64,000 bases of DNA from Gemmatimonadaceae bacterium. Lineage in GTDB: Bacteria; Gemmatimonadota; Gemmatimonadetes; Gemmatimonadales; Gemmatimonadaceae. Both the position numbers and the translations under genes were made by a program. The stretch lies in the NCBI GenBank assembly GCA_045803545.1, contig JBJMOW010000004.1:928001-992000 (forward strand), in the 5' to 3' direction. Positions 33,503-63,831 of this stretch are shown here, piece by piece. Every line of letters begins with the position of its first letter. Position 1 is the first letter of the stretch. Under the pieces are notes generated by a model. It was not told where the DNA came from. It ran no database searches and saw only the letters and a program-made list of their open reading frames with translations.

Positions 33503-34348
33503 ATGATGAAGTCACCGCTAATTCTTTCGGCGCTGGTCGCCGCGATGGGCGTTGCTGGCGCTCAGGACAAGACTGTCCAGCCTGACTCGACCTGCACCAA
33601 ATACTCGAACGGTCGCGTCGAGTGTCGGGTCTACCGACACTTTGGATCAGACAGTCTGATGCGAAGAATGAGCTTCCGCATGGACTCAGTATTGGCCAAC
33701 CGCGCGGCACTGGGCCTGGAAGTTCGCTCGACCGGCAACAAGCGCGATACGCTCGGCGTTTTTGTCGAGGGCGTGACGTCGAAGGGGCCGGCTGAAGCAG
33801 CCGGCATCGTCGAAGGCGATCGGATTGCGTCGATCAACGGCATCGACCTTCGTACCGCGCCGGCCGACGCTGATGATGAATTCGACAGCGGAATCGGAGC
33901 GCGCAGATTGAGTCGCGAAGTGCAGAAGCTCAGTCCAGGCGCGCGCGTCAGTCTGCGGGTTTACTCGGGCGGCCGCTTTCGCGATGTGCAGGTGACTGCC
34001 GGAAAAGCCGGCGACCTGATGCGCCTGAGAACGGCGAACGGCAGATTCCCTGGCGGTGGTTTCGAGTTCTACGGGCCTGACAGGATGATCGGTCCCGAAC
34101 AACTGATGATGCACGAGGATTTCGAACCGCTGATGCTCGAGCGGATGCAGCCGATGCTCGACCGGATGCAGCCGATGCTCGAGAGGATGCAGCCGATGTT
34201 GGAGGAACGCCTGCGCGATTTACCTGAGCGGATCGAGTTGCGCATGGCGCCCGGGGTCCGGACGTTTCGGACGCTACCCCGCACTTACCGTGTGGAGCGT
34301 GGTACCGAGGAGCAGCGCGCCGCTGCCCAGCAGGGATTCATCCATTAA
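33503..34348 (+). CDS. Secreted PDZ-domain protein
   Basis: AAGGAG RBS, signal peptide ending AGAQ, GVFVEGV..KGPAEAAGIVEGDRIASING. Confidence 0.85.
   Translation: MMKSPLILSALVAAMGVAGAQDKTVQPDSTCTKYSNGRVECRVYRHFGSDSLMRRMSFRMDSVLANRAALGLEVRSTGNKRDTLGVFVEGVTSKGPAEAAGIVEGDRIASINGIDLRTAPADADDEFDSGIGARRLSREVQKLSPGARVSLRVYSGGRFRDVQVTAGKAGDLMRLRTANGRFPGGGFEFYGPDRMIGPEQLMMHEDFEPLMLERMQPMLDRMQPMLERMQPMLEERLRDLPERIELRMAPGVRTFRTLPRTYRVERGTEEQRAAAQQGFIH
34132..34206 (+). repeat. 21-bp coding tandem repeat, about 3.5 copies (MLERMQP)
   Basis: GATGCTCGAGCGGATGCAGCC / GATGCTCGACCGGATGCAGCC / GATGCTCGAGAGGATGCAGCC / partial. Confidence 0.9.
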
Positions 34349-44255: not shown

Positions 44256-44365
44256 AAGATATATTGAGTCATCTCTGGAGTAAAGGGGAACAACGACGCT
44301 TGCTGCTGCCTGCTTCGGCTAGCCGCCGAGCAGCTGGCTCAAAGCCCAGCGGCCAGCGCCGTTTG

Positions 44366-44521
44366 TTAATGCCTCGTTATCGCTTTTGACTCCTCGAGAT
44401 GCCTGTACTTCGCATTCGTCAGCAGCACGATCGAAGTCAGGATGAGGAATAGGGTCACCGCGCTGAGGATGAAGCCGGTGAGCGCAGCAGCGAGATCGGT
44501 TTTCTTTTTGATCGCCATCAT
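44366..44521 (-). CDS. Small single-TM protein (51 aa)
   Basis: ATGA overlap with the cyclophilin stop, [43 protein letters not shown]. Confidence 0.6.
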
Positions 44522-44997
44522 TTCGCTCCCGGCTCGCTCGCCACGCGTGCCTTCGACAGGGTGTCGTTCTGATTGATCTTCGGAATCACCTCGAGCCCTT
44601 CGACCACCCGCCCGAAAACTGTGTGCACCCCGTTCAGGTGTCGAGTGTTCGCCTCGCTGAGCACGATGAAGAACTGGCTGCCGCCGGTATCCTTGCCCGC
44701 GTGCGCCATCGATAGTGCGCCAACCTGATGCTTGTTCGGATTCCCGGACGTTTCGCATTTGATCTTGTAGCCAGGCCCACCGGTTCCAACCGGTCCTTTC
44801 GCCTCGGCGCCGCCTTTCGAGTACGGGTCGCCACCCTGCACCATGAAATCCTTGATCACACGGTGGAACTTCGTTCCGTCGTAAAATCCTGAGTTCGCCA
44901 GCTTCTCGAAATTGGCGACAGTATTCGGCGCGTCTTTCTCGAACAGCTCGGCGCGCATAGTTCCTTTGTTCGTTTCGATTGTGGCGATTTTCGTCAT
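44518..44997 (-). CDS. Cyclophilin-type peptidyl-prolyl isomerase
   Basis: [43 protein letters not shown]. Confidence 0.95.
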
Positions 44998-45032
44998 TAG
45001 TCGAGGAAGGGAATTGCTAAAACTAACACACA

Positions 45033-45090
45033 GATTGAGGCGTTCGGACCAACAGCCTGAACTGGCTGTTTTAGTCCGAACGCCTCAATC
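45033..45090. mobile_element. 58-bp palindromic mini-element, internally deleted derivative of the 62676-63300 cassette
   Basis: First 25 bp identical to 62676-62700; right part closely matches 63271-63300. Confidence 0.8.
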
Positions 45091-45754
45091 ATTTCCGCGC
45101 GGCGCGAAATCCGGCGGGTCGTTCCCGGCTCGCCTGGTCGAGCGCGCGACGCACGCCCGCCGCATCAAAGTCGGTCCCATACACCGGAGATCCCGGCTGC
45201 TGCTTCCATGACTCGTCGAGTCCGCCCGCGTCAACAGCGTCAAATCCCATCTCGTCGAGCAGCTTGATCACGACATCCTTGGCTTGCTTGTCGTCGCCGG
45301 CCACCGGCAACGCAATGCGTCCGGGCGTGCCACGTGGTTTACCGCGGTCCAGCAGATGCTTCGCGTAGATGTTGTTAAATGCTTTCACAACCGGTCGTCC
45401 GAGCTGCTGCGCTACCCACCGACTCTCGGTCGTTCCTGATTCGATGTCAGACAGGTAGCCGTCTCGCTGAGGGTAATAATTGCCGGTGTCGACTATCACT
45501 GCGGTTGCAGGTGTGTCAGCGAATAGATCGCGCGGCAACCTGGGGATGCTCTTCTCCGGAATGGTGACTATCACAACCTCACCCTTCCGCGCCGCTTCGC
45601 TCGGTGTCACCGCTTTGGCGCCAGTCTCGCGCGCGAGACCGTCCAGGGTCTCCGGACCACGAGAGTTCGCGACATAGACCTCGTGACCAAGCTGACTGAG
45701 ACGGCGAGTAAGATTGCCGCCAATGTGTCCGGCTCCGATGATTCCGATTCTCAT
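45089..45754 (-). CDS. NADPH-dependent F420 reductase-like / dinucleotide-binding oxidoreductase
   Basis: IGIIGAGHIGG, ANSRGPETL, VDTGNYYP.RD, VVKAFNN. Confidence 0.85.
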   Translation of the reverse strand: MRIGIIGAGHIGGNLTRRLSQLGHEVYVANSRGPETLDGLARETGAKAVTPSEAARKGEVVIVTIPEKSIPRLPRDLFADTPATAVIVDTGNYYPQRDGYLSDIESGTTESRWVAQQLGRPVVKAFNNIYAKHLLDRGKPRGTPGRIALPVAGDDKQAKDVVIKLLDEMGFDAVDAGGLDESWKQQPGSPVYGTDFDAAGVRRALDQASRERPAGFRAARK

Positions 45755-45764
45755 ATCTGCTCCG

Positions 45765-46466
45765 TTAAATAGTGCTCGACGGGCAAATCTCGACCAGCGT
45801 GCAGCTCACACACTGCGGTGAGCGGGCGAAACAGACTCGACGCCCGTGAAAGATCAACACGTGGGCGAGCATCGTCCAATCGTCGCGCTCAATGAGACCC
45901 ATCAAATCCTGCTCGGCTTTCACGGGATCGGTTTGACGCGTGAGGCCAAGTCGCACTGCGAGCCTGCCAACGTGAGTGTCGACGACCACGCCTTCGTTCT
46001 TGCCGAACGCATTGCCGAGTATGACGTTGGCGGTCTTGCGACCAACGCCGGGTAGTTTGACCAGCTCCTCCATCGAGTCGGGGACTGCGCCCTTGTGCCG
46101 CTCGACCAGCGCCTTACCGAGCGCGATCAGGCTCTTTGTCTTGTTGCGAAAGAATCCGGTGCTCCTGATCATCTCCTCCAGCACCGTCGGATTCGCATCG
46201 GCGAGCGATTGAGCCGTCGGAAAAGCCTTGAACAGCGCTGGCGTCACCAAGTTGACGCGCTTGTCGGTGCACTGAGCGCTGAGGATGGTTGCTATCAAGA
46301 GCTCGAGCGGGGTGGAGTAATCCAGCTCGACGTGCGCGTCGGGATAAAGGTTGCGCAGCCGCGTGTACAGCTCGCGGGTGTGGGCCGGGATCTGCGCTTT
46401 CGCAATCGAACGTCTGCGCCGGCTGGCAATCGCCTTCTTCAGTTTCTTGACGATCGTTTTTTTCAT
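45765..46466 (-). CDS. nth: Endonuclease III
   Basis: [12 protein letters not shown], Hh[18 protein letters not shown]-x6-C-x2-C-x5-C Fe-S motif. Confidence 0.96.
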
Positions 46467-48196
46467 TTACGCCTTTTTCGGGCGAACGCTAGTACATCGT
46501 CCGCGCCGCGGGTGTTGAGGATCTCTACAGACTCGAGCCACGCCTTCCGGGCGAGGCCGATTCCGAAGTGAACATTGTCGAGCCCGGGCACCGAATGCGC
46601 GTCCGGGCCGATCTCGATCGTCACTCCCAATTCCTTCGCGCGACGGCAATAGCGCCAGTCGAGATCGAGCCGATGCGGATCGGCGTTGAGCTCGACCGAC
46701 ACACCGACTTGAGCGGCCTTTTCGAGCACGGCCTCGACATCAAGTGCGTACGGCTCGCGCGACAACAATAATCTTCCGGTCGGATGCGCGAGAATCGTAA
46801 GGTGTGGGTCGTCGAGCGCAGCGAGTACACGCTTCGTCATTGCATCGCCGTCCATGCTAAAGCGCGAATGGATCGAGCCGATGACGTAGTCGAAGGTATC
46901 CAGAACGTCGGAGTCGTAGTCGACGCGGCCGTCGGCGAGAATGTCGGCTTCGATTCCCTTGAGAATCCGGAAGTTCTTGAGCCGGACGTTGATCTCGTCG
47001 ATCTCCTCATGTTGGCGCAGCAAACGATCGCGCTTCAAGCCGCGAGCGTAAAACGCAGACTCCGAGTGATCGGAGATGCCGATGTAATCCCAGCCGCGCT
47101 CAATCGCGCCCTCGGCCAGCTCCTCGATCGTCGCGACACCGTCGGAGTAATCCGAATGGCAGTGAAGGATGCCTCGCAAGTCTTCATAGACGACGAGATC
47201 GGGCAGCTCGTGGCGGGCGGACGCTTCGACTTCGCCCATGCCCTCGCGCATTTCGGGCGGAATCGGCAGGAGATCTAGCGCGGTGAAAAACGCATCCTCA
47301 TCCTCGACCGGAATTCGCTTTCCGTCGGGTCCGATCAACGAGTTGCCGCGAATTTCGAAGCCGCGCTCCTTTGCCAGTTCGCGCACCTCGTCGACGTGCG
47401 GCGAATTGCCCGTCGCGCGCCATAGGGCTACCGGATAGTCGGCTTTGGTGACGCAGTGAATGTCGAGATGGGTTCCGTCAACGAATCGAATCTGGACCGA
47501 GCCCGGCTCATCGGGCTTCGAGGTCGCCTCGCGCACACCCGGCGATCTCGCAAAGGAATCGGCAACCTTGACCGGATCCTTCGTGCACTCGGCGACGATG
47601 TCGACGTCAGCGACGAGCTCATTGTGCCGCCTGATCGAGCCGGCGATTTCCGCGTGGTCGACGTCGGGATGGCGGTCGACATTTGTCGCGAGCATGTGGG
47701 CCTGGATGATCGCCGCCGGGAATCGCTGCAGATGCGCATCGCGTCGCACGACCTCGATTCCGCGAAGTATCTTGTGGGCCGTCTTGTCGCCGAACTTCGG
47801 CAGCTTGGCGAGCTCACCGTTCTGAGCGACGCGTTCGAGATCTTCGAGGGTCTGGACGCCGAGCTCGGCGTGAATGAATTGGATTTTTTCGGCATTGAGT
47901 CCGGGGACGCGCATCAAATCCACCATCCCCGACGGCATTCCTTCGCTGAGCTGATTCAGGTATCGCGATTCGCCAGTCTCGACGAGGTCTCGGACGACCG
48001 AGAGCGTAGCGGGGCCGATACCGGGTGTGTCAGCGAGCTCGCCGGAACGGAGCAGCGGACCCAGGTCATCGGTGTCGAGCGCGATCAATGCGCGCGCGGC
48101 CCCCTGATACGCTTTAGCCTTGAACCTTTGTTCGCCTTTCAAACGAAGAAGCGAACCGATTTGGGAGAGAACGTGCGCTGCTGACCGCGAATCCAT
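46463..48196 (-). CDS. polX: DNA polymerase X with PHP domain
   Basis: HhH motifs, [40 protein letters not shown]. Confidence 0.93.
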
Positions 48197-48250
48197 TCCC
48201 GCAATTTAAGCGGGATGCCTGCCCGTCTCCTTCCTTAAGGAAGGGCGAAA

Positions 48251-48712
48251 TCAGGTCGCTTCTTCGACGCCGGCGTGGAAGGGGAGGGTCTTCACGATCT
48301 CCTCTATCTGCTTCTGAATCAGCTCGAGCTCCTGGCTGGCGCCCTCACTGTCCAGCATGCCGTGCCGCATCGTCACGGCCACCCGGTTCATGTACTTGAT
48401 CTTGGTGATGATTTCTTCGGTGGCCCGACGGAGTCGGATATAGCGACGCTTGTCCGCCAGTGCGCGGTGGCAACGCCGCTCGAGATCCTGGGGAGTGAGC
48501 TTACGCGCCGTCTCGACGGCTTCGGCGATGGTACGACCGGGAACAGCGCCGTGATCGGGGATTCCCATTTGGTCGCTGTTTGGATCGCTGAACCAGAGCC
48601 TGCCGATGTATTCGACACCGTCATAGGCGAGACGGAGCGCTACTCTGTATTCCTTGCCGTCAACCGTGATCGAGCTGATCGCGTGCTGCGTTACGCCGGA
48701 ATCTGATGTCAT
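48251..48712 (-). CDS. Hypothetical protein
   Basis: 153-aa ORF with genome-typical codon bias, co-oriented with neighbours. Confidence 0.75.
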   Translation of the reverse strand: MTSDSGVTQHAISSITVDGKEYRVALRLAYDGVEYIGRLWFSDPNSDQMGIPDHGAVPGRTIAEAVETARKLTPQDLERRCHRALADKRRYIRLRRATEEIITKIKYMNRVAVTMRHGMLDSEGASQELELIQKQIEEIVKTLPFHAGVEEAT

Positions 48713-48721
48713 GGCTGAATT

Positions 48722-49645
48722 TCAGCGTCGTACAGGCGGATTTGTCTCATCCAGGAATGGTTCGAGTGCCGCGAAAAGCCGGTCCGGTTGTTCAACGTAC
48801 GGCACATGCCCGCAGTCGTCCAGCACCACCAGGTCCGTTCCGAGGGCGTTAGCAGCGTCACTGGAAGACGCTAATGGAATAGGATCGTCACGCCCGTGGA
48901 TCACAATTGAAGGGATTTTAATCGCTTCCAGGTCAGGAAACAGGTTGAAATCACCGAGACTTTGCCACACAGACTGCTGGATCCTGCCGATGACCCGGAA
49001 GGGCGTGAGGTCGGTTGCCTTGCGCGGATCGGAGAAATACCCGGCAACGCTCAACTCAAACGCGCGGTGGCGGTTGGCTTCCGGATCGCGTTCGCGCAAA
49101 CCAGACGCGTTCAGCTCGTCGCGCAACCGCTGGATTTCAGGACTCGCCTGCCTGCGTGCAAACTCGGCGTCGAACTGTGCGCGATACTCGCGGGTCAGTG
49201 GCGCTGGGTTGATCAGCGCCAGCCGTGCCGGTGGGATCAGATGCGGGTTTCTCCGCTGTTCGATCGCGTACAGAAGCGCCAGCATCGCACCCCAGGAGTA
49301 TCCAACGATCGAAAGTGGTTCGAGCCGGTGCTCGTCGGCAATCCGTCCCAGATCATCGACGTGAGTCCGCCACGTCACCTGCATCCGCGCGTCGGTTCGC
49401 GATCGTCCGCCACCGCGCTGATCGTAAAAGGTGAGATCGTATTTCTCGCCGAGCCGCAGCATTTGCGGCAACAGATAACAGTGATCGGCGCCCGGCCCGC
49501 CGTGCAGGACTATGAGCTTTGGTGCGCCGGTCTTTCCGTACCTGGCCCAATAGATCGGGACTTCGGTTGAAGTTGTGAAGCCCTCCTCGCGCGGAGGCGG
49601 AATGCGGGAGGCGCGAGACGGGAGGCGGGAGGCGGAACTGCTCAA
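48722..49645 (-). CDS. Alpha/beta hydrolase (proline iminopeptidase-like)
   Basis: LHGGPG, YDQRGGG, GYSWG nucleophile, HGRDD, GHVP. Confidence 0.9.
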   Translation of the reverse strand: MSSSASRLPSRASRIPPPREEGFTTSTEVPIYWARYGKTGAPKLIVLHGGPGADHCYLLPQMLRLGEKYDLTFYDQRGGGRSRTDARMQVTWRTHVDDLGRIADEHRLEPLSIVGYSWGAMLALLYAIEQRRNPHLIPPARLALINPAPLTREYRAQFDAEFARRQASPEIQRLRDELNASGLRERDPEANRHRAFELSVAGYFSDPRKATDLTPFRVIGRIQQSVWQSLGDFNLFPDLEAIKIPSIVIHGRDDPIPLASSSDAANALGTDLVVLDDCGHVPYVEQPDRLFAALEPFLDETNPPVRR

Positions 49646-49675
49646 AGAGCCGGAGGTGGAGGCGAGAAGCGGGAC
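49591..49675. repeat. Degenerate GGGAGGC/TCCCGCC heptamer tract spanning the intergenic gap and hydrolase N-terminus
   Basis: Minus strand reads TTCCGCC TCCCGCC TCCCGTC TCGCGCC TCCCGCA TTCCGCC. Confidence 0.65.
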
Positions 49676-49677
49676 GT

Positions 49678-50745
<1,068 letters not shown>

Positions 50746-50924
50746 GCGTGGTAAAGTTGACAGGTTTGGGCAGACACGGCCTCGAGGACGTGACGAGCGA
50801 GGAGAAGCAAAATGTATAGCAACAGGGACCTAAAATGACGTTGTAAGCGTGCGGGGCTGGCCTTCGCGAACGACTCTTGCAACTCGACGCGCGGTATCAA
50901 TCACTAGTACAGCGCTTGTTCATC

Positions 50925-52742
50925 ATGAGAAACGCCCTTCCGCTGCTGCTTGCATCTTTCTTCGCGACAGCAGTCCAATCGTCACCAGCGGCGGCACAAG
51001 CGGTCGCGACTTCCGCGCCAATCACCGATGTGCGCTACGAGGTGACCTTCACTCGCGCAAACGGTGAGCAGCGGCGCGTCGGTTCGGCGATGACCTTTAC
51101 CGTTGGAGGCATCGATCCGGTTGTGCTGGCGCTCCCGAAATGGACGCCGGGCGCCTACGAAATTGCCGATTTTTCGCGCGATGTGCTGAATTTTTCGGCC
51201 GAGCAGGCGGGCGCATCGCTGGCGTGGGATAAAGCGGGCCCCGACACGTGGCGTATTCGTCCACGTGGAGTTGGTGAAGTGACGGTACGGTTCGAATATC
51301 TCGCGGACAGCCTCGACAACGCCAACACGTGGGCGCGTCCCGACTTTCTTCTCTTCAACGGCACCAACCTCTTCCTCTATCCGGCGGGCCGGGGATTCGA
51401 TTTTCCAGCGTCAGTATCGGTGAATACCGAAGCTGGGTGGAAGGTGGTCACGGGGATGCGATCGGCGAGCCCACGACAATATTCGGCTCCGAACTACCAT
51501 GATTTGGTCGACTTCCCGTTTTTCGTCGGACAATTCGACGTCGACAGCGCCCAGATTTCGGGCACCTGGGTTCGCTTCGCGACTTACCCATCAGGCAGCG
51601 TGACTGGTGGTGCGCGCATCGCGGTATGGGAAGCGCTGAAGCGTGTCATTCCAGCCGAAGTCAAGGTCTTCAAAGAAGTGCCGTGGACGACATACAGTGT
51701 GCTTCAGATCGCGGATCCCAGCTACGGCGGCGGCTCCGGGTTGGAGCATCAGAACTCCCACGTTGACGTGCTCGGTCCCGGGATGCTGGGGACACCGGTG
51801 CTGCCCTCACTCTATGCCCACGAGATCTTTCACGCCTGGAACGTAAAGCGCCTACGGCCGGCGGACCTTTGGCCGTACCGCTACGACCAGGAGCAGCCAA
51901 CGACCTTACTGTGGGTCAGCGAAGGCATCACCGATTATTACGCGGATCTCGCCGAGGTACGCGGCGGAGTCATAAATCCGCAGGGATTCTACGAGGCGAC
52001 GAGTGACAAGATCTCGCAGGTGGAGCAGCTTCCGCCGACATCGCTCGAGGATGCATCACTGTCGACGTGGGTGCATCCGCGTGACGGCACCGAGTACATC
52101 TACTATCCGAAGGGCTCACTCGCCGGGTTGCTGATCGATATCATGATTCGTGACGCGAGCGGCAATCACAGCTCGCTCGACGATGTGATGCGCAACCTGT
52201 TCAACGCGGACTACAAGGGTGGGCGTGGATTCACCAATGAGGAATGGTGGGCGGCTATAACATCCGCCGCCAACGGAAAATCATTCGCCGATTTTTCTGC
52301 GCGCTACATCGACGGGCGCGAGCCGTTTCCTTACGAGCGAGTGCTGCCATTGGCGGGCTTGCGGCTCGCCCGCGATACCGCCCGAGTGCCGCAATTAGGC
52401 ATTGCGAGTCTGCAGGATTCGACGGGATTGCGAGTTACCGAAGTGATTCCCGGGAGTGCAGCCGCTACTGCGGGAGTACAGCCTGGTGATCAGCTCGTTT
52501 CAGTAGCGGGGTTCGACGCTGCCGATCCGAATTGGACCGATCGCTTTCGCGCCCGCTACTCGAGCGTGGCTGAGGGAACAGATCTGCCGGTAGTAATCAA
52601 GCGCGACGGTCAGCAGCAAACCCTGATGGCGCATCTGCATTTTGTGCTGCGGATCGAGTCGCGCGTCGTCGAGGATGTCAGGGCGTCGGCCAAGGCGAAA
52701 AGGATTAGATCGGGATTGCTGACGGGAACGACCAGTCCGTGA
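50925..52742 (+). CDS. M61 glycyl aminopeptidase family protein with PDZ domain
   Basis: WTPGAY, GLEH..S, HEIFHAWNVKRLRP, LWVSEGITDYY, YYPKG. Confidence 0.92.
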   Translation: MRNALPLLLASFFATAVQSSPAAAQAVATSAPITDVRYEVTFTRANGEQRRVGSAMTFTVGGIDPVVLALPKWTPGAYEIADFSRDVLNFSAEQAGASLAWDKAGPDTWRIRPRGVGEVTVRFEYLADSLDNANTWARPDFLLFNGTNLFLYPAGRGFDFPASVSVNTEAGWKVVTGMRSASPRQYSAPNYHDLVDFPFFVGQFDVDSAQISGTWVRFATYPSGSVTGGARIAVWEALKRVIPAEVKVFKEVPWTTYSVLQIADPSYGGGSGLEHQNSHVDVLGPGMLGTPVLPSLYAHEIFHAWNVKRLRPADLWPYRYDQEQPTTLLWVSEGITDYYADLAEVRGGVINPQGFYEATSDKISQVEQLPPTSLEDASLSTWVHPRDGTEYIYYPKGSLAGLLIDIMIRDASGNHSSLDDVMRNLFNADYKGGRGFTNEEWWAAITSAANGKSFADFSARYIDGREPFPYERVLPLAGLRLARDTARVPQLGIASLQDSTGLRVTEVIPGSAAATAGVQPGDQLVSVAGFDAADPNWTDRFRARYSSVAEGTDLPVVIKRDGQQQTLMAHLHFVLRIESRVVEDVRASAKAKRIRSGLLTGTTSP

Positions 52743-52780
52743 TGCGAGCCAACGATTAGTTGGCTCTCATCACGCAGCTG

Positions 52781-53944
52781 TTACTTGAGTATGGCTTTCG
52801 CGATGGTCTGTAGCTGCATGTTGGAGGTCCCCTCGTAAATCGTTCCGATTTTCGCATCGCGGTAAAACTTTTCGACCGGATAATCCTTCGTGTATCCGTA
52901 ACCGCCGAAAAGTTCGATGCACAATGAGGTGACGCGCTCGCAGACCTGTGACGAGAAGAGCTTCGCCATCGCGCCTTCGCGCGCGATGTCCTTGCCGGCA
53001 TCCTTGAGACGCGCGGCGTTATAGACCATCAGGCGCGCTGCCTCGACCTCGGTCGCGGCCTGCGCCAGCTGGAACTGGATTGCCTGAAAGTCTGCGAGCT
53101 GTTTGCCGAATTGCTTGCGCTCCTGCACGTACGCGATCGCTGCATTCAAAGCGCCCTGGGCGATACCAATCATCTGCGCGCCAATACCGATGCGCCCACC
53201 ATTCAGCGTGTTGATCGCGATCTTGTAACCCTGACCAACCGGCCCAAGGACGTTCTCCTCGGGAACTTCACAGTTGTCGAGTAGGAGCTCAGTGGTGCTC
53301 GAGGCGCGAATGCCAAGCTTGTCTTCCTTCTTGCCAACCTTGAATCCCGCGAAATCACGCTCGATGATGAACGCCGTAATTCCGCGGTAACCCGCCGACG
53401 GATCAGAATTCGCGAACACGACGAAGATTCCCGCCTCGGCGCCATTCGTGATCCACAGCTTCTGACCGTTGAGAATCCACTTATTGCCGCGCTTCTCGGC
53501 GCGCGTGGCGAGTCCAAATGCATCCGAGCCCGACCCTGATTCGGACAGCGCATAGGCGCCGATCACGTCCGAGGTCAGCTGCGTCACGTACTTCGCTTTC
53601 TGAGTGTCAGTGCCGTACTTGAGGATCGGGAAGTTGACGAGGGTGTTCTGCACATCGCACACGATCGCCGCGGCTGCGTCGACCTTGCTGATCTCCTCGA
53701 CGGCGAGCGTCAGCATGAACAGGTTGCCGCCCGCCCCGCCGTATTGTTCGGGTGCTTCAATCCCCATCAAGCCAAGCTCGAAGTACTTCGGGAGCAGGGA
53801 TGGATCGATCTTTCCGGCTTTCTCCATTTCCATCACGCGCGGCCGCACCTCGTCCTGCGCAAAAGCGGCAATCGCGTCGCGAAACATCATCTCCTCTTCG
53901 GAGAGGACTGTTAACGCATTCACTGCCCCCGCCTCTGTCTCCAT
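52781..53944 (-). CDS. Short/branched-chain acyl-CoA dehydrogenase
   Basis: ALSE..SGSD, LNGQKLWITN, KLGIRASST, FGGYGY, IYEGTSN. Confidence 0.93.
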   Translation of the reverse strand: METEAGAVNALTVLSEEEMMFRDAIAAFAQDEVRPRVMEMEKAGKIDPSLLPKYFELGLMGIEAPEQYGGAGGNLFMLTLAVEEISKVDAAAAIVCDVQNTLVNFPILKYGTDTQKAKYVTQLTSDVIGAYALSESGSGSDAFGLATRAEKRGNKWILNGQKLWITNGAEAGIFVVFANSDPSAGYRGITAFIIERDFAGFKVGKKEDKLGIRASSTTELLLDNCEVPEENVLGPVGQGYKIAINTLNGGRIGIGAQMIGIAQGALNAAIAYVQERKQFGKQLADFQAIQFQLAQAATEVEAARLMVYNAARLKDAGKDIAREGAMAKLFSSQVCERVTSLCIELFGGYGYTKDYPVEKFYRDAKIGTIYEGTSNMQLQTIAKAILK

Positions 53945-53946
53945 TC

Positions 53947-56004
53947 CTACCAGATCCTGGGCTGCATCGCAGCCGCACGAACCATCGGATCGCCTTCCTT
54001 GCAGCCCCATGCCGCCCTGAACTCCGGCATGTTGCTGAGTGGACCGTTAACCCGCCACTTGGACGGCGGATGCGGGTTCGAGCTGACGAGATAGCGCAAG
54101 AATTCCGGACGATCCAGCTCACGCCACACCTGCGCCCACCCGAGGAAGAAGCGTTGCTCGGGGGTGAATCCGTCGATTACCGGCTGTGGATGCGCCGCCA
54201 GGGCGCGCTTCATCGCAGCATATGCGACGGTGAGCCCGCCGAAATCTCCAATGTTCTCGCCAAGGGTGAGATTGCCCTGTACGTGCGTCGCGGTGTCGAG
54301 CACGGTGTACGCGTCGAACTGCGTGACGATCTTGTTGGCTTCGGTCTCGTACTTCGCCGCGTCTTCCTTCGTCCACCAGTCGCGCATGTTGCCGAACTTG
54401 TCGTACTGGCGACCCTGGTCGTCGAAGGCGTGTGACATCTCGTGACCGATCACTGCGCCCATCGCTCCATAGTTCAGCGCGTCGTCCGCATTGGGATCGT
54501 AAAATGGTGGCTGGAGAATACCTGCCGGGAACACGATCTCATTGAGCAGCGGATTCTCATAGGCATTCACAGTGGGCGGAGTCATTCCCCACTCGGTGCG
54601 GTCGGTCGGCTTACCGATCTTCGCCCAGTCGCGCTGCGACAGGAATTGATTCGCCGCGACGACATTTGCGTAGTAGCCCCCTGGCGTGATCTGCAGCTTC
54701 GAGTAGTCGCGCCATTTGTCGGGATATCCGATCTTTCGATTGAACGCGTCGAGCTTGACCAGCGCCTGCTGCTTGGTATCCGGGCTCATCCACTGCAACT
54801 GCTCGATGCGCGAACGCAGCTCGCGGACGAGATTGTCGACAATCGTGACTGCGCGGGCCTTGGCGGCAGGAGTGAATCTTCGGGCGACGAACTCCTGGCC
54901 AAGAACCTCGCCTAGATAATTGTCAGCAGCGTTGGTGCACCGCTTCCAGCGCGGACTGATCTCCGTCGCGCCGGTGAACAGCTTGTTGAACTCGAAATCC
55001 TGTTGCACGAACGGCGTGCTCAGCGATGCCGCGGAGCCGTGGATCAGCCGCCAGCGAAGCAGCGTCTTCCAGTCGGCGAGCGGGATGCTGGTAAGCATCT
55101 TGTCGAACGCCTGGAAAAACTCCGGTTGACCGACGTTGATCTTCTGTGGTGGCGTGATCCCAAGCGCGCGATAGAAGTCTTCCCACCTGAAATCCGGGGT
55201 CAGCGAATCGACCTGCCGCAGTGTCAGCCCATGATAGTTGTTGACGACATCTCGCAGCTGAATCGGCGTCCGCGACGCTTTCGCGAACTGGGTCTCGACG
55301 GCGAGGACTGTGTTTGCTTCAGCTTTCGCCTTGGCTGGGTCGTCGCCCACCAGTCGGAACATTCCAGCGATGTTGTCGACGAACTTGGCGCGCAGATTTG
55401 TCGACGCGGTGTCGGTCTTTGAGTAGTACTCGTTGTTGGGCAGCGACAATCCGCCCTGGTACAAACCGGCGATGGTGTTTGCAGCGTCTTTAGCGTCCTG
55501 AGCCGAGCCTTCGGAGATTGGCGCCAGCCCATAACTGTGCTCGAGCTCTCCGAGCGCTCGTTTCAGGTCGTCAACGCTATTGATCGCAGCAATGCGAGCG
55601 AAGCCGGGTTTAAGCGGCGTTGCGCCTAGTCGCTCGATGGCGACGGTGTCCATGCAGCTCGAATAGAAGGCGGCCATCTTGTAGTTGTCGGTCGCCGGCT
55701 TGTACTGGCCGGCCTTCAACCTGACAACGCTGGTATCGAGAATCTCCCGCAACAGCGCCTGGTTCTGATCGAACAGCTGATCGAACGCTCCGTAACTCGA
55801 ATAATCTCCGGGGATCTTCGCGGTCTGCAGCCAGCCACCGTTGGCATAAGAGTAAAAGTCTTCGCACGGACCGCACGTGGTATCCATGTTCGCGCGATCG
55901 AACGGTTTGGTTTGCACGGGTGCCTGCGCGCCCAAAACACTCGCAAACGCCAGCGCAAGAAACAGTGGGTGGGCCAGGGTTCGACGAGAGCAAATCACCG
56001 ACAT
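53947..56004 (-). CDS. M13 family metalloendopeptidase
   Basis: PCEDFYSYANG.W, KIGYPD, VNAY, GHEMSHAFDD, GENIGD; GGAGG RBS before ATG 56004. Confidence 0.94.
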   Translation of the reverse strand: MSVICSRRTLAHPLFLALAFASVLGAQAPVQTKPFDRANMDTTCGPCEDFYSYANGGWLQTAKIPGDYSSYGAFDQLFDQNQALLREILDTSVVRLKAGQYKPATDNYKMAAFYSSCMDTVAIERLGATPLKPGFARIAAINSVDDLKRALGELEHSYGLAPISEGSAQDAKDAANTIAGLYQGGLSLPNNEYYSKTDTASTNLRAKFVDNIAGMFRLVGDDPAKAKAEANTVLAVETQFAKASRTPIQLRDVVNNYHGLTLRQVDSLTPDFRWEDFYRALGITPPQKINVGQPEFFQAFDKMLTSIPLADWKTLLRWRLIHGSAASLSTPFVQQDFEFNKLFTGATEISPRWKRCTNAADNYLGEVLGQEFVARRFTPAAKARAVTIVDNLVRELRSRIEQLQWMSPDTKQQALVKLDAFNRKIGYPDKWRDYSKLQITPGGYYANVVAANQFLSQRDWAKIGKPTDRTEWGMTPPTVNAYENPLLNEIVFPAGILQPPFYDPNADDALNYGAMGAVIGHEMSHAFDDQGRQYDKFGNMRDWWTKEDAAKYETEANKIVTQFDAYTVLDTATHVQGNLTLGENIGDFGGLTVAYAAMKRALAAHPQPVIDGFTPEQRFFLGWAQVWRELDRPEFLRYLVSSNPHPPSKWRVNGPLSNMPEFRAAWGCKEGDPMVRAAAMQPRIW

Positions 56005-56012
56005 CCTCCTTT

Positions 56013-56504
56013 TTATGTAGCGGTTTGTCGCGATGTTGCGGTCTGACGCGCCGTCTTGGCGCGGCATGCGTCACCGCAGAGTGTCTCGGAGCAATCTGGA
56101 TCCCAGCAGCGGTCCGCCTCGGCTCCGACAAAGGCCTTGATCGGTTCGATGCCGGCGCGCTCCAGAATCAACTCTCCGAGCTTTTCGTGGACGCCGAAGG
56201 CAGGCGTCACGCTGAATGTCACGTGAGGGAAGGGTCGCGCGGCAGCGGCCACCATCTGCGGAATATCGGTGGTGGAATGGCGACCCGGCGACAGCATGTA
56301 CGGGAAAACGATCACATCGTCTGCCCCGCGAGTCACGCAGTCTGCAAAACCTGCGTTGATATCGGGATCGGCAAGATCCATATGGGCGAAGCTGACAACG
56401 ACGTCGGAACCAGTCATCGTCTGCAGCAGGTTGGCCATGCACCGCATCATGCCGTTCGCCTCGGCGCGAACCGAGCCGTGATCGACGATGAGAATTCCTT
56501 TCAT
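56013..56504 (-). CDS. Short CbiX/SirB-type chelatase with Cys-rich tail
   Basis: IVDHGS, AHMDLA.P, PYML.PGRH...DIP. Confidence 0.82.
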   Translation of the reverse strand: MKGILIVDHGSVRAEANGMMRCMANLLQTMTGSDVVVSFAHMDLADPDINAGFADCVTRGADDVIVFPYMLSPGRHSTTDIPQMVAAAARPFPHVTFSVTPAFGVHEKLGELILERAGIEPIKAFVGAEADRCWDPDCSETLCGDACRAKTARQTATSRQTAT

Positions 56505-56536
56505 CTTTGCAAAATGGCGGTCAACACGCTGCGAGA

Positions 56537-57082
56537 CTAGTGCGGAGCTTCGTCCAGGCTGGTGCCGCGATGCCAGGTAGGTACGGCAAGGCCGCCCGCG
56601 TCCTCGTAAAAATGGATCTTGTTGGGCGCGTACATTTTGGTGAGGAAAATGATCTGCCCAGTGTGCATCGCGAAATGCTCCACGACGTGATAAACAGCGG
56701 CGAGGACCGTCGTTTCGCGATCCTGAATCACCAAGGGTCGTTCAAGATCTCGGGGCGTTAGCTGCGCCAGGACTGAGTCAGCTTCACGTAAGATTTGTTC
56801 GAGACCGTCCAGTAGTGTGCGCGCGTCGGCACCCTCCTGCTGGGCGAATTCTGACGCACGATGCCGGTGGTATTGCCGCCCGCCCACGCCGCCGAGGATC
56901 CACTCGGTGACATTCCCCGTGAGGTGCACCAGCAGATTGCCGATGCTGTTGCAACCGTCATCCGGACGAGTCCACACTGCCTGCCGCGGCAGCGCCTCGA
57001 CACAATGCCGAAGCTTGATCGGGTATTCCTTGGCCAGCCAGTATCTGGACCGAGCGATGAAATCGTCGGCGATCGACATCAC
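56537..57082 (-). CDS. DinB-family protein
   Basis: NSIGNLLVHL.GN, R..EF, HVVEHFAMHTGQI. Confidence 0.85.
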   Translation of the reverse strand: MMSIADDFIARSRYWLAKEYPIKLRHCVEALPRQAVWTRPDDGCNSIGNLLVHLTGNVTEWILGGVGGRQYHRHRASEFAQQEGADARTLLDGLEQILREADSVLAQLTPRDLERPLVIQDRETTVLAAVYHVVEHFAMHTGQIIFLTKMYAPNKIHFYEDAGGLAVPTWHRGTSLDEAPH

Positions 57083-58974
57083 GCCGTCTTCGCCTCGGTG
57101 GCAGCCAGGGTATCACGGAAGACATCGAGCGCGAGCTCCACTTTTCCAAATGGCGCCGACACCTGCACACCCTGGACATGCGGTCGCACGCGTTCGAGCA
57201 TCTCGCGAGCAATGGCGATTCCTTCGGCGACGCCGTGCTCCTTCGACTTCGCGCTTGCAGCCCGCATGCGCTCGATGATCTTCGGTGGCACGACGACGCC
57301 GGGGACTTCGTTGGCGAGGAACTCGGCGTTGCGCAAAGAGACGAGCGGCCAAATGCCGGCCACGATCGGAATCCGCACGTGGTCGATCGTGGAAAGGAAT
57401 TTGTCCAGCTGATTCACGTCAAACACCGGCTGTGTAATGGCGTATTCGGCGCCCGCTTCGACCTTCCACTCAAACCTCTTTAGTTCATGAGCGGGATCGA
57501 TCGCCGCCGGATTCACGCCGACGCCGATGGTGAACTTCGTCGGCTGGCCAATCGCGTTGGCGCCGGGATCGAGGCCGTGATTCAGGTTGCTCACCAGATT
57601 GGTGAGTCCGATCGCATCGATGTCGAAAACGGCGGTCGCATTAGGATACGGACCCATTTTCGGCGGATCGCCCGTGATCAGTAGCAAGTTGCGGAGGCCG
57701 ACCGCCGACGCTCCCAACAAATCGCTTAACATCCCCAGCAGATTGCGATCGCGACAGCAGTAATGGATGACAGTCTCGATTCCGACCTGCTGCTCGATGA
57801 GAATGCTGCAGAGGAGTGCACCCATCCGCGACTGAGCGCGCGGGCCGTCAGGGACGTTGACCGCGTCGACGCCTGCATCACGCAATGCAGCGGTGTCGCG
57901 AATCATCTTTGCCGCATCGACACCGCGCGGTGGAACGATCTCGACAGAGGTTACGAACTCTCCAGTGGCGATCTTGCGCCCCCACTTCGAACGCTCCGCG
58001 AGTGGCACGGGCTGGACCCCCGGATTCTCCGGCGGCACATCGGGATGACTCTGCCGCCTCTCCTTCATCGGCACGCGCGCCTGGCGTGGCGAAAGGGGAC
58101 GCACTCCCTCTACCATCGCCGCGATGTGCTCCGGCGTTGTTCCGCAGCAGCCCCCGACGATCTTGGCACCGGCCTGGACCAGGTGATGGGCATAGGTGGC
58201 CATGTACTCGGGGCTCGCCATGTACATGCTGCGACCGCTTACGTCGCGTGGCATGCCTGCGTTCGGCTGAGCAGATAATTTCCGCCGCGTAACCTGCGCC
58301 ATCTTTTCGATCGCATCGAGAATGATCTGCGGACCGACGGAGCAGTTGAGGCCGATGACGTCGGCGCCGAATGCGTCGAGCGTTTGCGCGAGATCTTCGG
58401 GCGTTACTCCATACGGAGTGTGACAATCAGAACCGATCGTCATCTGTGCGATGACAGGTATAGTCGCATCGACTTCGCGTGCGGCGAGAATCGCCTGCTC
58501 GACTTCGTGGATATCAGCGAAGGTCTCTAGGAGGAATAAATCGCAGCCCCCGTCCTTGAGCGCCTGCAACTGTTCACGGAATGCGGCGCGCGCCTCATCG
58601 AGACTGGTCGGACCAAAAGGCTCGATGCGAAGACCGAGCGGACCGACGGCGCCCGCCACAAGCAGCTCACCGTCCGCAACTTCGCGCGCCAGCTTTGCGG
58701 CAGCGCGATTGATCTCCGCCACCTGCGCGACGAGTCCGTATTGCTCGAGCTTGAAGCGATTGGCGCCGAAGCTATTGGTCTCCAGCACCTCGGCTCCCGC
58801 TTTCTTGTACGCCTTGTGGACGTCGCGCACGAGATCCGGCGCCCTAAGGTTAAGCTCGTCGTAGCACTGATTGATGAAGACGCCCTTGTTGTACAGCATC
58901 GTCCCCATCGCGCCGTCGAAGACGACGACCTGAAGCGGATCGAGAAGTCGCGACAGCAGCGGATTGTCAGGCAA
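57079..58974 (-). CDS. yitJ: Bifunctional homocysteine S-methyltransferase / methylenetetrahydrofolate reductase
   Basis: FDGAMGT, GLNC, GGCCGTTP, then MTHFR motifs CRDRN, ITGDP, ITQPVFD; TTG 58974 has GGAGG RBS. Confidence 0.9.
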   Translation of the reverse strand: MPDNPLLSRLLDPLQVVVFDGAMGTMLYNKGVFINQCYDELNLRAPDLVRDVHKAYKKAGAEVLETNSFGANRFKLEQYGLVAQVAEINRAAAKLAREVADGELLVAGAVGPLGLRIEPFGPTSLDEARAAFREQLQALKDGGCDLFLLETFADIHEVEQAILAAREVDATIPVIAQMTIGSDCHTPYGVTPEDLAQTLDAFGADVIGLNCSVGPQIILDAIEKMAQVTRRKLSAQPNAGMPRDVSGRSMYMASPEYMATYAHHLVQAGAKIVGGCCGTTPEHIAAMVEGVRPLSPRQARVPMKERRQSHPDVPPENPGVQPVPLAERSKWGRKIATGEFVTSVEIVPPRGVDAAKMIRDTAALRDAGVDAVNVPDGPRAQSRMGALLCSILIEQQVGIETVIHYCCRDRNLLGMLSDLLGASAVGLRNLLLITGDPPKMGPYPNATAVFDIDAIGLTNLVSNLNHGLDPGANAIGQPTKFTIGVGVNPAAIDPAHELKRFEWKVEAGAEYAITQPVFDVNQLDKFLSTIDHVRIPIVAGIWPLVSLRNAEFLANEVPGVVVPPKIIERMRAASAKSKEHGVAEGIAIAREMLERVRPHVQGVQVSAPFGKVELALDVFRDTLAATEAKTA

Positions 58975-61900
58975 CGGCGGCCTCCGGCGCGCCGGCTTGC
59001 GCACCCGTGCCGCGCACGGCGTAGTACTTCGCCTCTGGATGGTGCATGATCACTGCGGCGGTCGATTGTTCGGGCAGCAGCTGGAACGCTTCGGTGAGAT
59101 CCATGCCGAGCGCTTCTTTTGCGGGAAGCAGTTTGAACACGACGGTGTGATCGTCGAGATCGGGGCATGCGCCGTAGCCCCACGAGTATCTCTTCCCACT
59201 ATCTACGCCCAACTCTTTCTTGATGCGTCGATGCGCCCACTCGGCGACCGCTTCCGCCGATTCGACCGAGAGTCCGTGCGAGTAGAACGCTTCGGTGTAT
59301 TCGTTCCTGCCCTGGAGTTCGTCGAACCGCTTCGTCGCTTCGTCGCCGACGGTGACGACCTGCAGCGGTACGACGTCTACATCACCTGAATCCACGCTAC
59401 GCACATAGTCGGCGAGACAAAGCCGCTCGCGACCGACCATTCGCGGGAAGTGAAATCGCGCGATCTCGCGCAGCGAGCCGCCGTCGCTCGAGTATGCAGC
59501 CGGATCATAGATGATTACGTCGTTGCCCTTGGATTGGGCAGGGAAGTAGCCGTAGACGACTTGCGGTTTGATCCAACCGTTCTGCTTCGCATTTTTCTTG
59601 AGACGCTCGAGCGCGGGCTCGAACTCTTTCTTTACGGTTTGTTTGTAGGCATCGCCTGAGCCGCGCGCGCCCCACTGCAGGCGATATAGCTCGTCGAGAT
59701 CCAGCAGGTCGAATACTTCGTCGAGCGGAATGTCACGAATGACGCGGGTGCCCCAGAATGGCGGCTTAGGAACAGGATTGTTTGCCGCGACGTCGCTGCG
59801 CTCGCCACCTGCCTCGCCGACCGCGATGTCTTTGCCGACAGCAGTCTTCAGGAAAACGTCGTTGCGGGCGTCTTCGAGATTCTTGATCACGAATTCTTTG
59901 CGCTGCTTCGGATCCTGGAGCACGTCCATCGTCTCCAGTCCCTCGAAGGCATCCTTGCAGTAGAAGACGCCGGAACCGTAGTGTCGATCGCCGTCGACGA
60001 ACAGCGCCCGGCGGCCGAACCGACGATTGATTGCCGCGCCGCCGATCAACACGGGAATCTTCATCCCGCGCTTGTCGAGCTCCTGAACGCATAGCGGCAT
60101 CTGCTTCGACGTCGACACCAGCAGCGCACTCAATCCAATCGCATCAGCGCCAACTTCAACCGCCTTGTCCAGAATCGTGTTGACCGGAACTTGCTTGCCG
60201 AGGTCGTAGACGGTGTAGCCGTTGTTGGAGAGAATGGTGTTGACGAGCGATTTGCCGATGTCATGCACGTCGCCGTAGACCGTCGCGAGGACGACTTTGC
60301 CCTTGGTGAATCCCTCGGCCTTCTCGAGGAACTGCTCGAGATGTTTGACCGCCTTTTTCATTACTTCAGCGGACTGCAGAACGAAGGGGAGAATCAGCTC
60401 GCCAGCGCCGAACTTATCGCCGACTTCTTTCATCGCTGGCAGCAAGACATCGTTGAGCACCCGCACCGGATTCTCGCGCACGCCGGCGGTATCGAGCTGC
60501 TCTTCGATTCCTTCTTTCTTGCGGTGGAGGATCATCCAGTGGATGCGCTGATCCGACGTCATGCCCGCGGTCGGATCCTCTTTCTCGTTTTGCGTCGCCG
60601 CTGCGCCTGGTCCGGCCGCCGCGTAATGTTCGATGAAACGCTGAAGCGCGTCCGCCCGCTTGTTGAACACAAGATCATCGGCAAGCTCGCGCTCCGCCTG
60701 TGATATCTCGGCATAGGGCCGGATGTGCGCGGGATTGACGATCGCCGCGTCGAGCCCAGCCTGCACGCAATGGTGCAGGAACACCGAGTTGAGAACGCCC
60801 CGAGCATCCGGCGACAGACCAAAGCTGACGTTGGACACGCCAAGGATGGTCGATACGCCCGGGAGCTCGCGCTTTATGAGTCGAATGCCCTCGATCGTCT
60901 CTTTGCCCGACTCGATCCACTCCGCATCACCGGTCGCCAGCGTGAAGGTGAGCGCATCGTAGATGATATCCTCGGGTGCGAGGCCGTACTCATCGACAAC
61001 GATGTCGTAAATCTTTCTGGCGACCTCGAGCTTTCGCTCGCGGGTCTTTGCCATGCCGATCTCGTCGATGGTGAGCGCAATCACGGCTGCGCCGTGCTTT
61101 TTCACCAACGGCACCACAGCATCGATGCGCTTGCGGCCATTCTCCATATTGATGGAGTTCACGATTCCACGGCCGGGAATGTGCTCGAGCGCTTTCTCGA
61201 TGACGTTGGCTTCGGTCGAGTCGATGACGAGCGGCGTCTCAACGCTCATCGACAACAGCTTGACGACCTTCGACATCTGCTCGGCTTCGTCCGCGCGCTC
61301 GGTGAGCGCCACACAGACGTCGAGGACGTGCGCGCCCGAATCGACCTGATCGCGCGCCACCTCGAGAATGCCCTCGTAGTCGTCCGCGAGCAGGAGGCGC
61401 TTCACCTTGCGAGACCCCTGCGAATTGACGCGCTCCCCGACCAGAAGCGGCGGCGGATCCTGATGCAATGTGATCGCGCGCATCGCCGAGCTGACGCGTG
61501 GAACGTGACTCGGATGTTGAGGCTTCGATTCGGGCTCGGCTTTTCGAACCGCCTTGACGATCGCCGACAGGTGCTCGGGCGTCGTCCCACAACAGCCGCC
61601 CACGATACGAACACCGAAGTCGCGCACGAATTCCGAGAGCGCGGCCGCCATTGGTGCCGGCTCGAGCGGATAAACAGCTTCGCCGACGCCAGTGTTGAGC
61701 GGCAATCCCGCATTCGGAATTACCGAGAGCGGCAGAGTGGCATGCTCCGAGAGATAGCGAATTGGCTCGCGCATGTGCTCGGGACCAGTCGAGCAATTCA
61801 GTCCGATGACATCGACGTTGAGCGCCTCGAGTGTCGTCATCGCGCTGGCGATGTCGGTGCCGAGCAGCATGCGGCCGCTGACGTCGAGCGTGACCTGCGC

Positions 61901-62497: not shown

Positions 62498-62532
62498 CGG
62501 TTCCCAGCTCCCGCTCTTAACTGAGCGGTAAC

Positions 62533-62559
62533 AAAAAAGCCCGCGCATAGGCGCCGGGC
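62533..62559 (-). terminator. Intrinsic terminator in the metH leader
   Basis: Minus strand GCCCGGCGC-CTAT-GCGCGGGC-TTTTTT. Confidence 0.8.
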
Positions 62560-62564
62560 CAGCG

Positions 62565-62612
62565 CTTTAGCGGATTGTTTAACGTGGCCGCAAGTTGCTT
62601 TAAATCGCCACG
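62565..62612 (-). ncRNA. SAM-II (SAM-alpha-like) riboswitch aptamer
   Basis: CGTGGCGATTTaaagcaacTTGCGGCCACGttAAACAATCCGCTAAAG: P1 CGTGGC/GCCACG plus GATTT, TTGC and GCTAAA elements; upstream of metH. Confidence 0.8.
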
Positions 62613-62634
62613 ATTTCGATTAACACCCTTCGCT

Positions 62635-62663
62635 ATTGTAGTGAGGAGATCGGCGCTCGGCAA
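62635..62663 (-). promoter_or_regulatory. Sigma70 promoter TTGCCG-N17-TACAAT for the met operon
   Basis: Near-consensus boxes about 22 nt upstream of the aptamer. Confidence 0.7.
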
Positions 62664-62675
62664 GTTCTTGATGCG

Positions 62676-63300: not shown

Positions 63301-63712
63301 AAAACTGTACCTGATAATCCTCCCCGCCAATTTCCCTCTGCGATCTGCCCGTCGTCCTCGATCTGCAATCAAACGACTGTACCAACGCCATCAAGCGCTG
63401 CCTCTCCAACGGCAAAACCAAATGCGCCAAAGTCGCCCGCTGCAGCTTCGGCGGCAGAAAGAGATGCTCTCCATGCGATTTTCCGTAGACGATCAACGCG
63501 GCGTTAGTAGTGAGGGGAAGCGATGCGGCCTGACCGGCTTCCGTTACCTCCTCACTCGATACGACTACAACCTCGGTTTCGTCCGCGCGCATCATAGCTG
63601 CCGCGTCCGGGAGCGTTGCCGCGAACTCGACATCGTGACCGCAGCCGAGCAGGGTTTGCGCTAAGCCCTCGAGCAGCGCGACGTCGGCGCCGACGAGTAT
63701 CACCTTACACAT
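63299..63712 (-). CDS. Degenerate receiver-like (CheY-fold) hypothetical protein
   Basis: VILVG.D.ALLEGL.Q.L...GHDV pattern; lacks the canonical Asp/Lys residues. Confidence 0.55.
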   Translation of the reverse strand: MCKVILVGADVALLEGLAQTLLGCGHDVEFAATLPDAAAMMRADETEVVVVSSEEVTEAGQAASLPLTTNAALIVYGKSHGEHLFLPPKLQRATLAHLVLPLERQRLMALVQSFDCRSRTTGRSQREIGGEDYQVQF

Positions 63713-63831
63713 CGCAGCAAGCCTCAGCCATTCTTTGAATCGACTCGGGGTGAACTCTTGTGCGCCTCTACTACCTTTCGTGACGCGGGTCGCTCACGAT
63801 GCACACATTGCGCCGTGAGTGGTGCGCCCGC

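Follow-up and report, generated by a model that had tools for sequence, protein, structure and literature searches.

The 64,000-nucleotide stretch of a Gemmatimonadaceae genome analysed here (the window; assembly GCA_045803545.1, contig JBJMOW010000004.1) contains two copies of a hairpin-forming inverted-repeat element, F1, each lying against the 3′ end of a protein-coding gene in such a way that the first two bases of the element, GA, are also the last two bases of the TGA stop codon of the gene. The genes are an NADP oxidoreductase of the F420-dependent type (site 1) and a conserved gene of 137 codons (site 2). The docking of tips of this kind at stop codons is real and far beyond chance in two genomes, and the register shared by the two window copies is not a fixed property of the element. 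The source genome (G000; 3.7 Mb in 6 contigs, 60% GC, 93% complete) was compared with its sister genome G014, with other genomes of the genus (among which the unpublished G063 and G078 were merely counted in the tallies) and with metagenome relatives (L-numbers). Throughout, x is the position of the first base of the stop, measured from the first base of the tip, so that a host T completed by an element GA (T+GA) has x = −1.

45033–45090, no strand: short F1 hairpin copy, 58 bp, without an open reading frame (ORF); perfect 17-nt terminal inverted repeats (TIRs) around a small inner stem-loop
45033–45049 and 45074–45090: 17-nt tips of the short copy, an inverted pair, exact match
45089–45754, minus strand: 221-residue NADP oxidoreductase, F420-dependent type (F420_oxidored, PF03807)
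45089–45091, minus strand: TGA stop of the oxidoreductase (site 1), host T at 45091 and element GA at 45090–45089
62676–63300, no strand: long F1 copy, 625 bp, gene-carrying; imperfect inverted arms of ~60 nt with perfect 17-nt tips
62676–62692 and 63284–63300: 17-nt tips of the long copy, an inverted pair, exact match
62810–63235, plus strand: 141-residue ORF of the 23S_rRNA_IVP four-helix-bundle family (PF05635, E 3.8e-10, 40.4 bits against a cut-off of 33.8), antisense to both neighbours
63299–63712, minus strand: ORF of a conserved 137-residue protein without a Pfam family, orthologue matched in 50 of 61 genus genomes
63299–63301, minus strand: TGA stop of the 137-residue gene (site 2), host T at 63301 and element GA

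On the minus strand the site 1 gene ends CGG AAA TGA and the site 2 gene CAG TTT TGA, and bases 1–2 of the tip supply the GA of each stop. A preliminary description had reported this common register, together with far ends preceded by different bases and free of target duplication, and the sequence bears it out (A at 45032 before the short copy, G at 62675 before the long one). Two corrections are needed: the second copy is no short repeat, being a 625-bp element with ~60-nt arms and a 141-residue ORF, and the gene at site 2, described as receiver-like, has a product for which a Pfam search returned no family at E ≤ 0.01.

The 17-mer tip, GATTGAGGCGTTCGGAC, occurs four times in the window with 0 mismatches, as two inverted pairs; the mean count in shuffled windows was 0.31 and 0 of 100 shuffles reached four. 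The GA is element sequence, since it lies within a 17-nt repeat without mismatch on any of the four window arms and persists in copies with all kinds of flank. About a dozen F1 copies are present in G000, of 31–625 bp and mostly ~120 bp, and each arm holds one outer and one inner copy of a ~17-nt motif. Folded as RNA on the gene strand, the short window copy is predicted to reach −44.4 kcal/mol (z −11.8) and the ~120-bp copies −67 to −78 kcal/mol, all tested hairpins falling between −44 and −78 (z −9 to −13). With up to one mismatch, the F1 tip is present in 3 of 61 related genomes (18 tips in G000, 33 in G014 and 1 in G009). A second family, F2, is more numerous than F1 and has a similar tip, GACTGAGGCCCGAGGAC; the tips of both begin GAyTGAGG. 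The arms are degenerate 7-nt arrays, with a self-match over 79 arms of 0.413 at lag 7, 0.31 at lag 14 and ~0.23 at other lags; their heptamer units differ among themselves, and Tandem Repeats Finder reports no tandem array in F1 arms.

The long copy has no ORF besides the PF05635 gene, and the element contains no recombinase or transposase. An orthologous long copy exists in G014, whose protein is identical at 121 of 141 residues; the 64 synonymous and 20 non-synonymous codon differences indicate that the gene is under purifying selection. G000 holds eight PF05635 genes, each within inverted repeats spanning 579–819 bp and each with its own arm sequence. The other seven cassettes, several with plain heptamer arrays, are C4:457085–457690, C5:26994–27572, C4:382189–382772, C4:1517956–1518637, C6:61266–61864, C5:154227–155045 and C4:1539243–1539914, the last being the gene-carrying form of F2. 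As separate observations, the PF05635 ORF of this long F2 element (C4:1539334–1539774) takes its stop from the internal TGA of an F2 tip nested at 1539769, the ORF of the C6 cassette is broken into two frames, and in five of the eight cassettes (window copy included) the tightly abutting neighbour gene faces the PF05635 gene at its 3′ end in convergent orientation.

Little else marks the element ends. No direct repeat flanks the elements, and oriented left and right flanks (−7 to −1) match at only 32% of positions (70/217); a longer inverted repeat beyond the tips was sought and not seen, and an RTGCG pentamer recurs before some tips without being general. A search for the Y1/RAYT transposase (PF01797) gave 0 matches in G000, with the control matched in 6 of 14 genomes; this search covered no other transposase family.

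Tips and stop codons in two genomes

The distance from tip to nearest stop was tabulated against random intergenic positions, as the preliminary description had proposed, on G000 gene calls made with a home-made codon log-odds model (3341 genes, ~92% coding, median 3′-side spacer 58 nt). Of the 74 outer tips of F1 and F2 in G000, 44 are turned towards a stop and 30 towards a start. The stop lies at x = −9 to +3 in 27 of the 44 stop-facing tips, 16 of them at −9 to −3, four at −2 or −1 and seven at +3. The single positions are −9 (3 tips), −8 (7 tips: TGA twice, TAG four times, TAA once), −7 (1), −5 (2), −4 (1), −3 (2), −2 (1), −1 (3) and +3 (7 tips, two of them on weak ORFs), where the stop is the internal TGA of the tip. 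The remaining 17 tips are more than 9 nt off the stop. A random intergenic position would fall at −9 to −3 in 5.6% of cases, against the 16 of 44 observed (binomial p 8e-10), and under a null restricted to spacers of ≤100 nt the expectation is 17% (p 2e-3).

Further comparisons point the same way. When an element sits between the stop of one gene and the start of the next in tandem, the stop gap is smaller than the start gap in 13 of 16 cases (sign test p 0.02), and uniform placement in these cases gives a combined Fisher p of 4e-6, or 1e-4 with 20 nt reserved before the start. G014 was scored frame by frame, by a procedure that matched the G000 gene calls at 41 of 42 tips: a coding ORF ended within 60 nt of 27 tips, and 19 of these tips fall at −9 to +3 (−8, five; −4, five; −5, −3, −1 and +3, two each; −6, one). 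PF05635 cassettes with unrelated arms also abut stops, five of the eight touching or overlapping a called stop (TAG directly before the tip, T+AA, TG+A, an internal TAG and T+GA). These counts make a clear quantitative case for stop-codon docking. The earlier suggestion that insertion targets stops, or is tolerated only there, is supported in part, as an enrichment; 30 of the 74 tips face starts and 17 stop-facing tips lie further off.

A T at −1 is at background in F1 (4 of 23 tips) and raised in F2 (22 of 51), with 21% T in intergenic DNA. The F1 figure, and the restriction of the window to two cases, would suit a coincidence in which a frame-closing T happens to precede two of the dozen or so copies; the enrichment is genome-wide and cross-genome, however, and the closest metagenome relative shares the site 1 register by descent, so that we consider coincidence extremely improbable.

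A more substantial alternative is that elements insert anywhere between genes with no site preference, that copies near promoters are lost by selection, and that deletion bias then wears the neutral spacer between stop and hairpin down to zero. The high coding density and short 3′-side spacers of G000 favour this, as do start-side gaps that stay large (only 1 of 30 start-facing tips lies within 10 nt of the start) and G000 junctions that are tighter than those of G014 at both window sites. Gradual erosion would not, however, be expected to give a sharp peak at −8 or peaks in heptamer phase (−8/−1 and −4/+3), the excess persists within intervals of ≤100 nt, and the same positions hold different families in the two sister genomes. 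Selection and compaction by themselves are in our view an unlikely explanation.

Origin of the stops

Whether the stops belong to the genes or to the elements was approached through eight G000 genes with tip-overlapped stops, which were compared with their orthologues at the C-terminus. Besides the oxidoreductase, these are:

137-residue gene (site 2), x = −1: TGA in 26 of 29 genes and a length of 135–137 residues in 27 of 29, element-free orthologues included
218-residue gene, x = −1: position of the final residue kept in 18 of 21, with TGA, TAG and TAA all used
258-residue gene, x = −2: same end in 9 of 12
268-residue gene, x = +3: genus end Asp (GAY) plus stop in 9 of 14
249-residue gene, x = +3: end within one codon of six orthologues; G014 has T+GA there with an F1 element
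459-residue gene, x = +3: tail similar in length and different in sequence relative to four orthologues
608-residue gene, x = +3: G014 and G021 end ..RA TAG; G000 is without 7 nt that include this TAG and terminates within the tip, at its internal TGA

The stop thus stands at its genus-wide codon position in four of the eight genes (those of 137, 218, 258 and 268 residues), and in the last of these the GAT TGA of the tip coincides with a native GAT TGA, since the native genus end is GAY plus stop. The earlier view that the genes are left intact is essentially upheld by these four. As judged from these alignments, the host stops look ancestral and older than the elements.

The oxidoreductase is the least simple case. 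All 13 element-free genus orthologues are 5–27 residues longer (226–248 residues against 221/222 in G000/G014), which fits an element-borne stop trimming a tail and thereby truncating the gene. That reading is weakened, and is not secure, because the tails vary and short element-free tails exist. After a conserved FRA or WRA the tail holds 0–29 low-complexity residues in 80 metagenome relatives (L235–L314; also L072–L086), and element-free relatives with tails of 0–2 residues include L239, L244, L250, L255 and L296, many such genes ending ..RAK plus TGA.

More generally, elements might land in dispensable 3′ coding ends, truncate the gene and supply the stop, with no contribution from the host. 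Beyond the longer oxidoreductases, the internal TGA of a tip serves as the stop of seven G000 genes, the 608-residue gene has lost its TAG, the tail of the 459-residue gene has been replaced, and F2 shows its raised frequency of T at −1. Against this stand the genus-wide stop position in the four genes named above and the element-free oxidoreductases with 0–2-residue tails, and TAG or TAA stops at −3, −5 and −8 cannot derive from the tip. We regard an origin of the stops in the elements as distinctly improbable as a general explanation.

Several points nonetheless weigh against the conclusion that host stops came first, and against the case for docking that accompanies it. Some stops are clearly not those of the host: the 608-residue gene uses the TGA of the tip, and the last codons of the 459-residue gene look element-derived. 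The short element-free oxidoreductase tails were seen only in the wider metagenome set, and the 13 longer genus orthologues fit an element-borne stop. The gene calls of the codon model were checked only by orthologue conservation (the eight genes) and by the agreement between our own two methods (41/42), and the G000 and G014 counts are not independent because several sites are orthologous.

Junction register, turnover of occupants and a proposed history

An F1 element occupies site 1 in the four closest genomes, and all four genes end in Lys plus TGA. The elements and junctions are as follows, with amino acid identity of the oxidoreductase to G000:

G000: 58-bp element, x = −1
L235 (87%): 123-bp element, x = −1
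L236 (86%): 26-bp element, AAG TGA and then the tip, x = −3
G014 (84%): 123-bp element, AAG TGA G and then the tip, x = −4

A single GA of a GA-GA tandem separates the L236 junction from those of G000 and L235. In G014 the junction of site 2 contains seven extra nucleotides between TGA and tip (5 nt between stop and tip), with x = −8 compared with −1 in G000. The five bases after the far tip of site 2 in G000 are the reverse complement of five of these seven, which suggests that the inverted repeat may formerly have been longer. Elsewhere, junctions in G000 and G014 differ by 7 nt at the 608-residue gene and by 1 nt at the 249-residue gene. The shared T+GA register, which had been read as a mark of insertion, is therefore neither a fixed property nor an insertion signature, as the TGA|tip, TGA-G|tip and TGA-5 nt|tip junctions of relatives demonstrate, and there is no evidence of a mechanistic GA register.

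Steps of seven nucleotides have a precedent. A GGAGGCG-type heptamer array of six units lies at 49593–49668 in the window, and a contig of soil run X2 carries a 7-nt insertion, GCGGGAG, at 49668, a strain-level gain of one unit. Coxiella strains vary in the number of heptamer units in the intervening sequence (IVS) of their 23S rRNA (PMC4990558). Both observations indicate that heptamer arrays change in 7-nt steps. The direction of the junction changes is unrooted, and a tight original might have expanded into the looser junctions; this counts against the order of events proposed below.

The closest thing to an empty site is found in L239, the nearest element-free relative at site 1 (80% amino acid identity), in which the stop TAG is followed at once by a motif, ATTAC.., that in filled sites comes after the element and a further 5–8 nt. 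The position of this motif implies that insertion was placed directly behind the stop. Between G000 and G014 no clean strain-level empty site was found; flanks map well, and the intergenic DNA is too diverged or otherwise occupied. The assignment of the GA, for which empty sites had been suggested as a test, comes from the perfect repeat. When contigs of four soil runs were aligned to window positions 44300–63900, records from X1 and X3 ran through the whole short element without a difference, and most of the long element was present in one X4 record of ~98%; no element-skipping joint was present among the joints listed, and no recent insertion was seen. No run recorded as RNA contained the stretch.

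Occupants of these positions do change. Mapped onto G000 and read by eye, 27 F1-bearing sites of G014 hold F1 in both genomes in seven cases, F2 instead in at least five, another palindrome family in two and no recognisable element in at least four. Four chimeric elements in G014 that combine an F1 tip with an F2 tip at the opposite end (C4:3184–3316, C4:11269–11460, C57:2948–3080 and C171:9370–9508) are direct evidence that F1 and F2 recombine. Yet other hairpin families fill the position behind the stop in several orthologues of the 218-residue gene. Sites persist while their occupants change.

Persistence of this kind could also follow from active targeting, in which a placement machinery would recognise the stop (a TRR triplet in context, the terminating ribosome or the mRNA 3′ end) and insert directly behind it, selection playing a minor part. 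The fixed offset of −8 with all three stop codons (seven tips in G000 and five in G014), the abutment of cassettes with unrelated arms, the L239 motif and the continued filling of sites by changing families all agree with such a process. The many tips that face starts or lie more than 9 nt from a stop do not, and neither does the background frequency of T before F1 tips. A 3-nt target alone cannot explain in-frame specificity, and the lack of target duplications, of a recombinase or transposase in the element, of Y1/RAYT in the genome and of any recent insertion speaks against it. Active targeting seems to us possible but unlikely.

The explanation that we favour, and hold to be reasonably probable, is that each overlap is a junction at which a host stop meets the tip of an IVS-type hairpin built of heptamers, likely produced by small slippage deletions that merged an older TGA with the GAyTGA tip. 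The host stops would predate the elements; at site 1 G000 would have lost one GA of TGA-GA-TTGAGG, and at site 2 one 7-nt unit. The tip would provide TGA in two frames (T+GA and GAy-TGA), with a third frame closed by an outer GACTGAG-like unit where one is present, and small losses may be harmless because a tip with TGA in two frames would never lose termination. We rejected a general "three-frame stop" design: the core tip closes two frames only, and the tip of the C4:457085 cassette has no stop triplet. Docking itself would probably reflect admission right behind a stop, often when recombination between similar tips exchanges the element already in residence, along with selection, and probably not recognition of a GA register. 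In the transcript the hairpin, 0–5 nt past the stop, would be within reach of the terminating ribosome and inside its footprint, which would make a coupling of mRNA processing or decay to translation a testable idea. For the annotation of genomes rich in these elements, the last codon or two of a gene and its stop may be element sequence, and C-termini may shift by a few residues between close relatives.

Neighbouring features and comparison with known systems

Two further features border the elements:

44518–44997, minus strand: cyclophilin-type peptidyl-prolyl isomerase, the next gene downstream of site 1, starting 35 nt past the far end of the short element
62543–62621, minus strand: SAM-II (SAM_alpha) riboswitch ahead of a 1193-residue metH (RF00521, 44.7 bits against a gathering score of 36)

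The long element occupies the narrow gap between the stop of the 137-residue gene and the riboswitch, which limits the free space on its far side, and the order of stop, riboswitch and metH is retained in element-free relatives. At Rfam gathering thresholds the riboswitch is the sole match in the whole window, and neither element is covered. Other repeats in the window include a perfect GCGGGAA array of 3.4 units at 5592–5615, in a region where heptamer-like units start immediately behind the TAG that ends the gene at 4440–5576, and a 21-nt tandem repeat of 3.2 copies (93% matches) at 34132–34198. The GCGGGAA unit also flanks some F2 elements (C2:445608 and C6:221093).

Integron attC sites, which are marked by R″/R′ core sites and an integron integrase nearby, are imperfect palindromes at the 3′ ends of genes that often overlap the stop codon. 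Judged by eye, the tips described here do not seem to fit the attC core consensus, and the flanking genes are syntenic core genes rather than cassettes. Miniature inverted-repeat transposable elements, derivatives of autonomous insertion sequences with a transposase gene, resemble F1 in their TIRs, in short ORF-less copies beside a longer copy and in patchy presence (3 of 61 genomes), but F1 has no target-site duplication and the gene of its long copy encodes a four-helix-bundle protein, not a transposase.

Repetitive extragenic palindromes (REPs) and bacterial interspersed mosaic elements (BIMEs) are likewise multi-copy palindromes (20–40 bp) in 3′ flanks and act like mRNA 3′ hairpins. REPs within 15 nt of stops reportedly affect translation, in work by Liang, Rudd and Deutscher in 2015. 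F1 differs from REPs and BIMEs in having no GTAG/CGTC head and no RAYT/Y1 gene, in its greater length (~120 bp), in two motif copies per arm and in a gene-carrying form. Stable intergenic stem-loops in general are described as enriched within 50 bp after stops (PMC1590033). The heptameric repeats of Xanthomonas (GGGAATC) and Nostoc (GGGGAYT) are stop-proximal or stop-overlapping (Rehm et al., 2015, PMC4692102) and share the 7-nt periodicity. The accessible portion of that paper presents near-perfect simple G-rich arrays, read as G-quadruplex formers, and links them neither to a PF05635 gene nor to a conserved TIR, whereas the units here are degenerate, lie in a defined palindrome and belong to a family with a gene-carrying copy.

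A literature search, in which supplements were not covered, found no description of PF05635 cassettes outside rRNA or of their docking at stops. The nearest relatives are the ORF-bearing IVSs in the 23S rRNA of Coxiella burnetii and Leptospira, in which the S23p ORF occupies the loop of an inverted-repeat stem with strain-variable heptameric repeats; no transposase is known, the IVS is regarded as selfish or possibly mobile, and the Coxiella ORF is reported to be decaying (PMC4990558). RNase III cuts IVSs out of the transcript. Stop docking might even define a class of hairpin cassettes without transposase, widespread and so far undescribed, with the rRNA IVS as a special case, with a machinery (perhaps the four-helix-bundle protein acting on the 17-nt motifs) that would read the end of translation and with TGA-laden, 7-nt-phased tips adapted to close every incoming frame; we think this broader proposal very doubtful. 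The likeness between F1 and the rRNA IVSs is in the PF05635 ORF, the long inverted-repeat stem, the heptamer units and the lack of a transposase. The differences are that the window copies lie between protein genes and at stops, not in helix 25 or 45 of 23S rRNA, that ORF-less derivatives of 26–211 bp are numerous, and that the ORF is under purifying selection. A single element family with gene-carrying and gene-less copies joins the orphan PF05635 "IVS protein" family, unexplained heptamer repeats and post-stop hairpins.

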